Sequence record: PQ516281
DNA from: Escherichia phage vB_EQ1
Direction: 5' to 3' (one strand)
Length of the DNA stretch: 64,000 nucleotides
Position numbers and translations under genes: made by a program. Every line of letters starts with the position of its first letter. Position 1 is the first letter of the stretch. The notes beneath the pieces were generated by a model, which made no database searches, was not told where the DNA came from, and was given only the letters and a program-made list of their open reading frames with translations. Shown in pieces: positions 48,795 through 49,570 of the stretch.

Positions 48795-48938
48795 CTAGTT
48801 AAAGCATTCATACTTTGCTTGTAGTCCAATCATAATCCATCCAATTACAAGTGTTGGAATCATTACTGGAGCCGTTAAGCTCCAGTAGATAGTCATGACA
48901 AGCATCAATAGTAAAAGTCCTATTGTTATTGCTTTCAT
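48795..48938 (-). CDS. Tiny membrane peptide (47 aa) at the imm position
   Basis: Hand translation MKAITIGLLLLMLVMTIYWSLTAPVMIPTLVIGWIMIGLQAKYECFN; ATGA overlap with the SIS gene stop; below ORF-track cutoff. Confidence 0.45.
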   Translation of the reverse strand: MKAITIGLLLLMLVMTIYWSLTAPVMIPTLVIGWIMIGLQAKYECFN

Positions 48939-49570
48939 TGTTCGCCTCGTAACATGGCACCTAGTGCACCGCCAGGGTGGAACTTAAGGAAGTCATTAGA
49001 GGTAAATCCACGTTCAGACGAAAGGTTGATAGCAAACGTATCGATAAGCGCTAACAACAATGTAGTGGACATAGTCGGAGCCAGAGAATTCTCATCAACT
49101 TCTACCGCGATGCCTGTACAGAAAGAGTAATCAAAAAGGGCTTCGTATTCTTGTGGAATGTCTGGGTTACAATGCAACAGAATCTGTTTGACGTTCGGGC
49201 GAATCATTTTAAGATGCTTAGCCACGCCTATCATTTCTTCAGTTTTACCAGAACGACTAATATGAATCAACACATCATTAGGCGCAATAAATCCTGCATC
49301 ACCGTGAGAATAATGCCCAGTGTTCAAGTACATACTCGGGATACCGAGTGAAGCAAATGTCTCAGACGCTTTAGTTGCAATATTAGCATTCTTACCAACA
49401 CCTGTAATAATTACTCGGCTTTCATAATTACTAAGTCCAGGGCGTCGAAGAGTTTCTAGAATAGCATTATAACGAGCAGGGTTTTGACTAATTACTTTGG
49501 CCATAGCGGCCAAAGAAGAAGCTTGTTTTATGATTGCGTCAATAGCGATAGTAATAGGAGTAGTTTTCAT
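48935..49570 (-). CDS. SIS-domain sugar-phosphate isomerase (KdsD/GutQ arabinose-5-phosphate isomerase-like, SIS domain only; 211 aa)
   Basis: IITGVGKNANIATKASETFASLGIPSMYLNTGHYSHGDAGFIAPNDVLIHISRSGKTEE matches the SIS pattern G-x-G-K-S-x-x-I-x-x-K-x-A-x-T-F-A-S-x-G...H-G-D...I-S-x-S-G-x-T-x-E; no CBS domains. Confidence 0.65.
   Translation of the reverse strand: MKTTPITIAIDAIIKQASSLAAMAKVISQNPARYNAILETLRRPGLSNYESRVIITGVGKNANIATKASETFASLGIPSMYLNTGHYSHGDAGFIAPNDVLIHISRSGKTEEMIGVAKHLKMIRPNVKQILLHCNPDIPQEYEALFDYSFCTGIAVEVDENSLAPTMSTTLLLALIDTFAINLSSERGFTSNDFLKFHPGGALGAMLRGEQ

Follow-up and report, generated by a model that had tools for sequence, protein, structure and literature searches.

The gene that follows the DNA polymerase gene in Escherichia phage vB_EQ1 (PQ516281) is not new: it is the arabinose-5-phosphate isomerase gene already described in RB69-like T-even phages, and we infer that its product is very probably a stand-alone D-arabinose-5-phosphate (A5P) isomerase that feeds phage DNA arabinosylation as a flux booster. 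The protein, referred to here as the SIS protein, is 99.5% identical to RB69 gp55 (ORF055c, NP_861745) and to the HY126 protein XAN60481, orthologues of 211 aa whose genes likewise follow gene 43, overlap a 47-aa ORF by ATGA and precede the same cluster. The RefSeq product name of the RB69 gp55 orthologue is 'arabinose 5-phosphate isomerase'. RB69 itself differs in nothing substantive: its GenBank record splits two neighbouring genes by sequencing errors (PMC6024577, PMC13326640), and both are intact in the window, that is, the whole 64,000-nucleotide stretch of vB_EQ1 DNA that was analysed.

Gene context

The window is that of an RB69-like Mosigvirus, and its positions 43500-49650 are identical at the DNA level to Escherichia phage MRostami-2023e (100%) and nearly so to RB69 (97.9%). 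Within it, the SIS gene is embedded in a DNA-modification block between genes 43 and uvsX, with the following immediate neighbours:

49611..52322, minus strand: DNA polymerase gp43 gene, upstream neighbour of the SIS gene (903 aa; from the ORF and the RB69 annotation)
48935..49570, minus strand: predicted single-SIS-domain arabinose-5-phosphate isomerase gene (ATG start, 211 aa, stop included)
48795..48938, minus strand: 47-aa hydrophobic ORF, homologue of T-even gene 42.1 (phrog_3610 end to end, E = 6.8e-27)

The preliminary description had placed the SIS ORF at 48935-49570, directly downstream of the DNA polymerase gene, and these coordinates proved exact, with a 40-nt gap between the end of gene 43 and the ORF. 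A consensus scan found no promoter or terminator between the two genes; across the whole block the number of sites found by the scan equalled the shuffled expectation, and a TATAAT hexamer overlapping the end of gene 43 was without a −35 partner. The GC content of the SIS gene (0.417; window, 0.374) and its GC3 (0.33; neighbours, 0.27-0.39) are near the values around it and thus carry no compositional signal of recent transfer, and on this ground recent horizontal acquisition was ruled out.

The SIS stop codon was also said to overlap (ATGA) the start of a 47-aa membrane peptide at 48795-48938. The minus-strand junction, ACGAGGCGAACAATGAAAGC, contains this overlap, and the 47-aa ORF has a GAGG Shine-Dalgarno sequence 6 nt ahead of its ATG. 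The peptide is strongly hydrophobic: its Kyte-Doolittle 11-residue means reach 3.0 over residues 4-14 and 2.2 over residues 25-39. Homologues of the 47-aa ORF were found by tblastn in 575 phage records, including RB14 (gp42.1), T2, T6 and T4. The ORF is neither arabinose-specific nor a component of the sugar route: it is the conserved T-even gene 42.1, which phages that glucosylate their DNA also have. In T4, gene 42.1 is intact (a 49-aa ORF) but unannotated.

Family, fold and active site of the SIS protein

From the motifs GVGKNANIATKASETFASLG, HGD and ISRSGKTEE in the translation, the protein had been judged closer to the KdsD/GutQ type than to the GmhA type, and KdsD/GutQ-type and CBS-less isomerases were indeed its best matches by sequence, profile and fold. 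First, it matched PHROG 5670 'arabinose 5-phosphate isomerase' over its full length (E = 3e-116), and this match together with the 191 database proteins found at E <= 1e-5 places the gene far beyond chance. Among the NCBIfam models, KpsF/GutQ (2.7e-32), KdsD (1.2e-30) and GutQ (1.4e-22) were matched, whereas RpiR/HexR-type models reached 1e-6 or worse. The scores lay below the curated cut-offs of both TIGR00393 (112.4 bits against 203.7) and the KdsD model NF008141 (107 against 505) because those models include the CBS pair; the match takes in only model positions 2-153 of 268. Pfam detected the SIS domain alone (residues 51-181, E = 5.7e-10), without any CBS domain, and the chain stops at the HPGGALG linker helix, the point at which KdsD-type enzymes go on into their CBS pair, in agreement with its earlier reading as a protein without that pair. 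Alignment with the CBS-domain constructs 3k2v and 3fna pairs residues 185-207 of the phage protein with positions 4-26 of the constructs.

The profile comparison with KdsD, GmhA and GlmS that had been proposed was made against the PDB. The entries 5uqi (2.1e-39) and 3etn (2.9e-37) came out on top over almost the whole length of the protein, and 2xhz (1e-26) and 3fxa (7e-22) were also matched; RpiR-type regulators reached 2e-5 and GlmS 0.2, and GmhA gave no match at E <= 1 in NCBIfam or in the PDB sequence and profile searches. By PDB sequence search the RpiR-family SIS domains reached E = 0.004, and only the SIS part of these regulators was covered in either search. No non-isomerase SIS protein was therefore the best match, RpiR-type regulators being 5-20 orders of magnitude weaker than A5P isomerases.

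Next, an AlphaFold2 model of the protein (pLDDT 94.7) was searched with Foldseek. The best matches were 2xhz, 3etn and 5uqi, at about 1e-13 (2xhz: E = 1.5e-13, TM 0.91 on target, rmsd 1.8 Å); 3fxa followed at 1e-11, regulators at about 1e-8 to 1e-7 (best RpiR-family match, 8e-9) and GmhA at rank 50 with a TM of 0.55. The sequence, profile and fold rankings rule out a GmhA, GlmS or RpiR identity.

All of the 36 phage homologues compared, down to 38% identity, share residues K60, H89, E112, E157 and H198 as well as the phosphate-loop residues S105, S107, G108 and T110. In the 2xhz alignment the first four align with K59, H88, E111 and E152 of KdsD (K59 is Ala in this K59A crystal), and H198 aligns with H193 in the register given by the KdsD model coordinates; K59, H88, E111, E152 and H193 are reportedly the active-site residues of KdsD (Gourlay et al. 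2010, on 2xhz). KdsD is a tetramer in which the equivalent of His198 is supplied by the neighbouring subunit, and by analogy the phage protein probably works as an oligomer too.

E. coli KdsD, GutQ and KpsF have the same SIS fold (rmsd 1.8 Å to 2xhz), equivalents of the active-site residues and the same presumed reaction, but they carry a tandem CBS pair that the phage protein lacks, and identity is about 29%. E. coli CFT073 c3406 (5uqi) and a Bacteroides fragilis enzyme (3etn) are, like the phage protein, about 200 aa long with one SIS domain and a C-terminal HPGG/HHGG helix; their TM values to it are 0.80-0.89, at only 28-30% identity. The PDB entry 5uqi is titled 'E. coli CFT073 c3406 in complex with A5P', and from the PDB titles we take both to be proven A5P isomerases; they are cellular enzymes of capsule or Kdo pathways, not of DNA modification.

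Specificity for another substrate, such as G6P/F6P or sedoheptulose-7-phosphate, with the product feeding a different nucleotide sugar, is very unlikely. The CBS-less Listeria SIS protein 3fxa is a significant match by profile and Foldseek and is reportedly (Cech et al. 2014) a glucose-6-phosphate isomerase, not an A5P isomerase, so that specificity in this SIS clade is not guaranteed by fold alone. The layout of isomerase, kinase, HAD phosphatase and nucleotidyltransferase genes (see below) is also that of ADP-heptose synthesis, which runs through the SIS isomerase GmhA, an anomeric kinase, the HAD phosphatase GmhB and a nucleotidyltransferase, and database records often call the phage HAD gene 'phosphoheptose isomerase'. 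Proven A5P isomerases, however, outdo 3fxa by 5 to 17 orders of magnitude in the profile search, GmhA is unmatched by sequence and only 50th by fold, and all five KdsD active-site residues are invariant. The sugar on RB69 DNA, moreover, is arabinose (PMC6024577, PMC13326640).

It is also very unlikely that the protein is an A5P isomerase serving manipulation of the host envelope (Kdo, LPS or KpsF-like capsule supply) rather than DNA modification. Its closest cellular relatives, KdsD, KpsF, c3406 and the B. fragilis enzyme, do serve Kdo or capsule pathways, and translation of the gene is coupled to that of a small membrane peptide; the peptide, however, shows such coupling with any gene that happens to precede it (imm in RB14 and T4, for example), and the coupling therefore says nothing about the isomerase. 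The position of the gene inside the block from gene 43 to uvsX, and its presence in five ara-type loci but not in one kv_tblp2-type locus with a 43%-identical kinase/nucleotidyltransferase, argue for DNA modification. Last, a catalytically inactive sugar-phosphate-binding sensor or regulator, like the RpiR/MurR effector domain, is scarcely credible: RpiR-family SIS domains are detectable by sequence, profile and Foldseek, but enzymes match far better by profile and Foldseek, Pfam finds only the SIS domain and no DNA-binding domain, the N-terminal helix-turn-helix is absent, and the catalytic Lys, His and Glu are strictly conserved.

The arabinosylation cluster and the proposed pathway

By the published cluster definition for arabinosylated 5-hydroxycytosine ('Afh' type; PMC13326640), the cluster at 43571-48753 is complete for the ThyA-like dCMP hydroxylase, AfhE-like, AfhF-like and glycosyltransferase genes, these genes are collinear with one another and with the SIS gene, and they are 96.6-99.7% identical to those of HY126:

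47068..48753, minus strand: bifunctional sugar kinase and sugar-1-phosphate nucleotidyltransferase (RB69 gp52:53, AfhE-like), putative consumer of A5P
46682..47083, minus strand: HAD-type sugar phosphatase (RB69 gp51, AfhF-like; NCBIfam TIGR01689 capsule biosynthesis phosphatase, 6.9e-13; phrog_1238)
45464..46624, minus strand: U32-family protein (RB69 gp50), candidate O2-independent hydroxylase (Pfam Peptidase_U32, 7e-11)
45228..45467, minus strand: 79-aa ORF (RB69 ORF049c; phrog_8601), between the U32 and ThyA-like genes
44470..45186, minus strand: thymidylate-synthase-like dCMP 5-hydroxylase (RB69 gp48; Pfam Thymidylat_synt, 2.4e-15; 98.7% identical to HY126)
43571..44470, minus strand: putative first DNA arabinosyltransferase (RB69 gp46:47; single 299-aa ORF; phrog_3891)

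The 561-aa kinase/nucleotidyltransferase has an N-terminal Pfam NTP_transferase domain, kinase-like matches at residues 344-409 and NCBIfam nucleotidyltransferase matches; it is 96.6% identical to its HY126 counterpart, and its function is taken as reported for HY126 AfhE (PMC13326640). The same study reported the activities of HY126 AfhE and AfhF and proposed that the HAD phosphatase removes the 5-phosphate from arabinose-1,5-bisphosphate; in many records its gene is misnamed 'phosphoheptose isomerase'. Hydroxylase activity of RB69 gp48 has been shown by experiment, with 5-hydroxy-dCMP, the arabinose acceptor base, as the product (PMC13326640). The base modified by the pathway is 5-hydroxycytosine and not 5-hydroxymethylcytosine (PMC13326640). 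The RB69 annotation splits gp46:47 in two, a sequencing error according to the same study, which predicts a glycosyltransferase; the gene is intact in the window.

LC-MS and NMR have demonstrated arabinosylated 5-hydroxycytosine in the DNA of RB69 and of phages related to it (PMC13326640). Thomas 2018 linked RB69 ORF055c to arabinose and proposed conversion of ribulose-5-phosphate (Ru5P) to A5P (PMC6024577), and Lee 2026 (NAR) likewise proposed that gp55 converts Ru5P to Araf5P (PMC13326640). The idea that the SIS gene supplies the sugar-phosphate entry point of the pathway agrees with this published proposal for RB69 gp55, and we infer the activity itself from homology and context. In the reconstitution with HY126 enzymes the starting compound is A5P rather than Ru5P (PMC13326640), and we found no enzyme assay of any phage SIS member in the accessible literature. 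A phage Tn-seq preprint using Bas46 and LC53 gives no gene-level essentiality for this cluster, and the isomerase goes unmentioned in the Thanatos paper.

In the proposed pathway, the SIS protein would convert Ru5P to A5P and pass it to the next enzymes of the same operon-like block. The bifunctional kinase/nucleotidyltransferase would phosphorylate A5P at C1, the HAD phosphatase would strip the 5-phosphate off arabinose-1,5-bisphosphate, and the nucleotidyltransferase domain would then make UDP-arabinofuranose, from which phage glycosyltransferases would move arabinose onto 5-hydroxycytosine in phage DNA, protecting it from host nucleases. GmhA has an analogous role as a SIS isomerase that opens a four-step nucleotide-sugar route, although it is not a family-level relative of the phage protein, and by this analogy the phage arabinose route would mirror ADP-heptose synthesis, one sugar class down.

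Because KdsD and GutQ are already present in the host, the most fitting role for the phage copy is that of a flux booster, which would act without the CBS regulatory pair. With about 63,000 cytosines per genome, 1-2 arabinoses on each and 100-200 progeny, the estimated demand is roughly 6x10^6 to 2.5x10^7 A5P per infected cell. This would equal or exceed the normal output of the cell for Kdo, the burst size and the Kdo demand being background figures.

Distribution of the SIS gene and its meaning

All five ara-type loci compared (the window, RB69, HY126, KLB31 and Virsaitis27) carry the SIS gene, and their kinase/nucleotidyltransferases are at least 70% identical to that of the window. In Acinetobacter phages the SIS gene and the kinase/nucleotidyltransferase each occur in 57 records. 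By contrast, the one locus read whose kinase/nucleotidyltransferase is 43% identical, that of Klebsiella kv_tblp2, lacks both the SIS gene and the 47-aa ORF but keeps the genes for the U32 and ThyA-like proteins, the HAD phosphatase and the glycosyltransferase. With 368 records for the kinase/nucleotidyltransferase against 275 for the SIS gene, the counts suggest that the SIS gene is likewise missing in most of the clade with 42-43% identity in this enzyme, and in JS98-like (Dhakavirus) and Proteus phages. The gene may be dispensable, since relatives that have the other cluster genes do without it.

A tentative reading, which we hold to be possible but doubtful, is that the choice of arabinose in this family of 5-hydroxycytosine glycosylation clusters is fixed by the SIS gene. 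If so, phages without it would either bear another sugar on their 5-hydroxycytosine or rely on host KdsD/GutQ alone, and the CBS-less phage enzyme would escape the control that the CBS pair or CMP-Kdo feedback exerts on the host enzymes.

The U32 protein of the cluster has UbiU as its sole NCBIfam match and 13 invariant Cys. In five other phage lineages the U32 'peptidase' gene adjoins a chorismate mutase gene, and it is absent from Acinetobacter phages; this suggests a candidate O2-independent, prephenate-dependent cytosine hydroxylase. The known phage dCMP 5-hydroxylase uses O2 and these phages infect gut bacteria, so that an O2-independent route would explain modification under anaerobic conditions. 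In other lineages the chorismate mutase gene stands at the place of the 79-aa ORF, sometimes beside an orf79 homologue. The ORF is interrupted in HY126 and diverges faster than its neighbours. A diverged chorismate mutase was considered for it and rejected, as it has no CM_2 match; orf79 and CM_2 are different genes, because phages phiR1-RT and 92A1 carry both separately.

For the SIS gene itself these results add very little that is new: a reading from sequence alone had placed a CBS-less A5P isomerase correctly at the head of the nucleotide-sugar route, and the biology of DNA arabinosylation is already published for RB69, HY126, DLP3 and others. The pair of U32 and chorismate mutase genes may matter more than the SIS gene. 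With its cytosines in the form of arabinosylated 5-hydroxycytosine, phage DNA is guarded against restriction and CRISPR systems, and the modification matters for phage therapy.

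Position of the SIS gene and identity of its small neighbour

The window comes from a T-even phage of the RB69 type, in the genus Mosigvirus. Over bases 43500-49650 its identity is 100% to Escherichia phage MRostami-2023e and 97.9% to RB69. The ORF that we read at 48935-49570 agrees exactly with the coordinates and motifs in the preliminary description and lies, as stated there, directly downstream of the DNA polymerase gene, beginning 40 nt after gene 43. The genes that follow share its strand and lie close together, with gaps of -16 to +57 nt.

Genes around the SIS gene (window coordinates)
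49611-52322, minus strand: DNA polymerase, gene 43, upstream neighbour of the SIS gene
48935-49570, minus strand: SIS ORF, 211 aa
48795-48938, minus strand: 47-aa ORF, first after the SIS gene
47068-48753, minus strand: 561-aa protein, N-terminal sugar-1-phosphate nucleotidyltransferase and C-terminal kinase-like domain
46682-47083, minus strand: HAD phosphatase, TIGR01689 capsule biosynthesis phosphatase
45464-46624, minus strand: U32-family protein, RB69 gp50
45228-45467, minus strand: 79-aa ORF (RB69 ORF049c, phrog_8601), between the U32 and ThyA-like genes
After the 79-aa ORF, minus strand: thymidylate-synthase-like (ThyA-like) gene
43571-44470, minus strand: glycosyltransferase candidate, 299 aa, single intact ORF

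The TGA stop of the SIS ORF overlaps the ATG of the 47-aa ORF within ACGAGGCGAACAATGAAAGC, and a GAGG ribosome-binding site lies 6 nt ahead of that ATG. The overlap had been described previously and was seen here. The small hydrophobic ORF is gene 42.1, which is conserved among T-even phages and stands outside the sugar pathway: phrog_3610 matches it end to end, and homologues occur in 575 phage records, glucosyl-hmC phages among them. The RB14 homologue is annotated gp42.1 and overlaps the imm stop, T4 has an intact, unannotated 49-aa ORF (MKSKIIAALLLILMIIISIYYSVTVPLMIPTIILGWSLLLLQVKYECIN) between imm and gene 42, and in VR20 the homologue again follows imm, in a stretch without an annotated gene 42. 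RB69 RefSeq annotates a 36-aa version alone, yet the 47-aa ORF with its ATGA overlap is intact.

42.1-type ORFs in comparison loci from other phages
L002, 2492-2641
L004, about 1444-1593

Gene 42.1 overlaps its upstream gene in RB14 and T4 (imm) and here (the SIS gene), and thus the SIS overlap reflects a conserved habit of gene 42.1, translational coupling to whichever gene is upstream.

Family, fold and active site of the SIS protein

The SIS protein contains one SIS domain and no other Pfam domain, in line with the CBS pair having been described as missing. PHROG 5670, 'arabinose 5-phosphate isomerase', covers it at full length (E 3e-116). The top NCBIfam models were KpsF/GutQ (2.7e-32), KdsD (1.2e-30) and GutQ (1.4e-22), with RpiR/HexR-type regulators at 1e-6 or worse and no match to the GmhA model in this search; the scores fall under the curated cut-offs because the models span two CBS domains that are absent here. 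Among solved structures, a single-sequence search gave the Bacteroides fragilis enzyme 3etn (5.7e-25), E. coli CFT073 c3406 (5uqi, 3.1e-23) and the E. coli KdsD SIS domain (2xhz, 5.1e-19) as best matches. A 36-sequence profile returned the same three (5uqi 2e-39, 3etn 3e-37, 2xhz 1e-26), and more weakly the Listeria protein 3fxa (7e-22), RpiR-type proteins (2e-5) and GlmS (0.2). An AlphaFold2 model made from the alignment was confident (pLDDT 94.7, pTM 0.90). In a Foldseek search of the PDB, the SIS domain of KdsD came first (TM 0.91 on target, rmsd 1.8 A), with the B. fragilis enzyme and 'E. coli CFT073 c3406 in complex with A5P' behind it, the top three at ~1e-13; regulators (1e-8 to 1e-7), GlmS (~1e-7) and GmhA (rank 50) were lower. 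By both profile and fold, KdsD and the CBS-less arabinose-5-phosphate (A5P) isomerases are the best matches in the proposed comparison with KdsD, GmhA and GlmS, and isomerases outrank the RpiR-type regulators named as the alternative. Homology and the predicted fold therefore favour the earlier reading of the gene product as a putative A5P isomerase.

Across 36 phage-type homologues (identity down to 38%), G57, G59, K60, H89-G90-D91, S105, S107, G108, T110, E112, E157, A164-P165 and H198-P199 are invariant (36/36). The Ser/Thr-rich loop is the usual phosphate-binding element of SIS domains. In the pairwise register with 2xhz, K60 corresponds to position 59 (Ala in this K59A crystal), H89 to H88, E112 to E111 and E157 to E152, and H198 falls on KdsD H193 (KdsD model coordinates). 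KdsD K59, H88, E111, E152 and H193 were reportedly probed as the active site in the 2xhz paper of Gourlay et al. (2010). The protein terminates at the HPGGALG helix, which in KdsD comes just ahead of the CBS pair, and residues 185-207 align with the N-terminal residues of two CBS-domain constructs, 3k2v and 3fna. This pattern points to a complete catalytic module from which the regulatory CBS pair is cleanly missing, as it is in c3406 and the B. fragilis enzyme.

The arabinosylation cluster and its U32 protein

The SIS gene is already known: it has a RefSeq annotation, and the role first proposed for it in 2018 was refined in 2026. Thomas et al. (2018) detected arabinose on the DNA of RB69 and put forward ORF055c (the SIS gene) and ORF53_52c as candidate genes for making UDP-arabinose (PMC6024577). 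Lee et al. (2026) identified the modified base as mono- or di-arabinosylated 5-hydroxycytosine, not hydroxymethylcytosine, with 5-hydroxy-dCMP produced by the ThyA-like gp48, and proposed conversion of Ru5P to arabinofuranose-5-P by gp55 (PMC13326640). As relayed in that paper, He et al. (2026) found that HY126 AfhE (kinase and UDP-sugar pyrophosphorylase) and AfhF (phosphatase) turn A5P into UDP-arabinose. The cluster proteins are 96.6-99.7% identical to those of HY126, except for the 79-aa ORF, which is interrupted there.

These published assignments (PMC6024577, PMC13326640) make the following route the most likely mechanism: the SIS enzyme would convert Ru5P to A5P, which would pass through arabinose-1,5-bisphosphate and arabinose-1-phosphate to UDP-Araf, the donor from which arabinose would be added to 5-hydroxycytosine in DNA. 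Such a pathway would parallel ADP-heptose synthesis, with a pentose in place of the heptose. The isomerase activity of the phage protein is inferred, and the protein may be needed even where host isomerases are present. At a GC content of 0.374, a 168-kb genome holds ~63,000 cytosines, or 6x10^6 to 2.5x10^7 arabinoses for a burst of 100-200, and host Kdo demand is a few million per generation; this rough estimate supports a flux-boosting role beside host KdsD/GutQ.

The HAD phosphatase carries the name 'phosphoheptose isomerase' in PHROGs and many phage records; since its sole NCBIfam match is TIGR01689, this name has probably been propagated in error. In the GenBank record of RB69, the glycosyltransferase candidate (p046/p047) and the kinase/nucleotidyltransferase (p052/p053) are each divided in two. 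Both are single ORFs in the window, which agrees with the published view that the splits are sequencing errors. The 79-aa ORF is changing more quickly than the genes beside it: within Mosigvirus its identity is mostly 86-97%, versus at least 99% for U32. It is broken in HY126 and in two pieces in AV116 and 348Ecol098PP. Its identification as a chorismate mutase was rejected: phiR1-RT and 92A1 have both genes.

The U32 'peptidase', RB69 gp50, appears as a 'sugar or heterocycle reductase' in PMC13326640, which makes no mention of U32, chorismate or prephenate. U32 proteins of characterised function are hydroxylases that work without O2: RlhA forms 5-hydroxycytidine in 23S rRNA (PMC5727448), TrhP forms 5-hydroxyuridine in tRNA (PMC6599085), and UbiU/UbiV use prephenate as oxygen donor (PMC10990095) and bind 4Fe-4S clusters via conserved cysteines (PMC6747719). 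The oxygen of the gp48 hydroxylase comes from O2, by 18O2 labelling (PMC13326640). UbiU is the sole NCBIfam match of the phage U32 protein (8.9e-4), and the four phage lineages compared share all 13 cysteines, including a C-terminal CX4CX3CX2C. The gene was found in 221 phage records, with only Enterobacterales and Shewanella as hosts. Every match reached at least 80% identity, so Acinetobacter phages, in which the other proteins of the cluster are 51-59% identical, lack U32. Five other lineages (Kanagawavirus KLB31, Winklervirus Virsaitis27, Klebsiella phage kv_tblp2, Tegunavirus phiR1-RT and Serratia phage 92A1) carry a type II chorismate mutase, above the Pfam cut-off, right after U32 or U32 plus an orf79 homologue and ahead of the ThyA-like hydroxylase gene. 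The product of chorismate mutase is prephenate.

Chorismate mutase genes in the comparison loci
L006, 5655-5894
L007, 5658-6002
L008 (kv_tblp2), 6158-6403
L009, 530-820
L010, 510-767

The characterised relatives, the UbiU match, the cysteines, the chorismate mutase neighbour and the O2-using gp48 suggest that U32, plus chorismate mutase where present, may form an anaerobic route to 5-hydroxycytosine. From this context, U32 is a candidate pyrimidine C5 hydroxylase of the RlhA, TrhP and UbiU/V kind, independent of O2 and dependent on prephenate.

Distribution of the SIS gene

In tblastn searches the SIS protein was found in 275 phage records, spanning Escherichia/Shigella Mosigvirus, Serratia, Enterobacter, Yersinia, Erwinia and Klebsiella relatives (61-83% identity) and 57 Acinetobacter phages (~58%). 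The kinase/nucleotidyltransferase was found in 368 records, and the excess is a clade of JS98-like Escherichia, Klebsiella, Salmonella and Proteus phages in which this protein is 42-43% identical. Records of this clade include JS98, dhabil and Proteus Pm5461. At the one locus of the clade that was read, that of kv_tblp2 (L008 2327-7991), the HAD, U32, chorismate mutase, ThyA-like and glycosyltransferase genes are kept, and the SIS gene and the 47-aa ORF are both absent. It therefore seems that the SIS gene accompanies a single type of kinase/nucleotidyltransferase. This pairing disfavours a role in host envelope synthesis and supports a sugar-specific role for the SIS gene, and it shows the isomerase to be an optional module within a wider family of 5-hydroxycytosine clusters.
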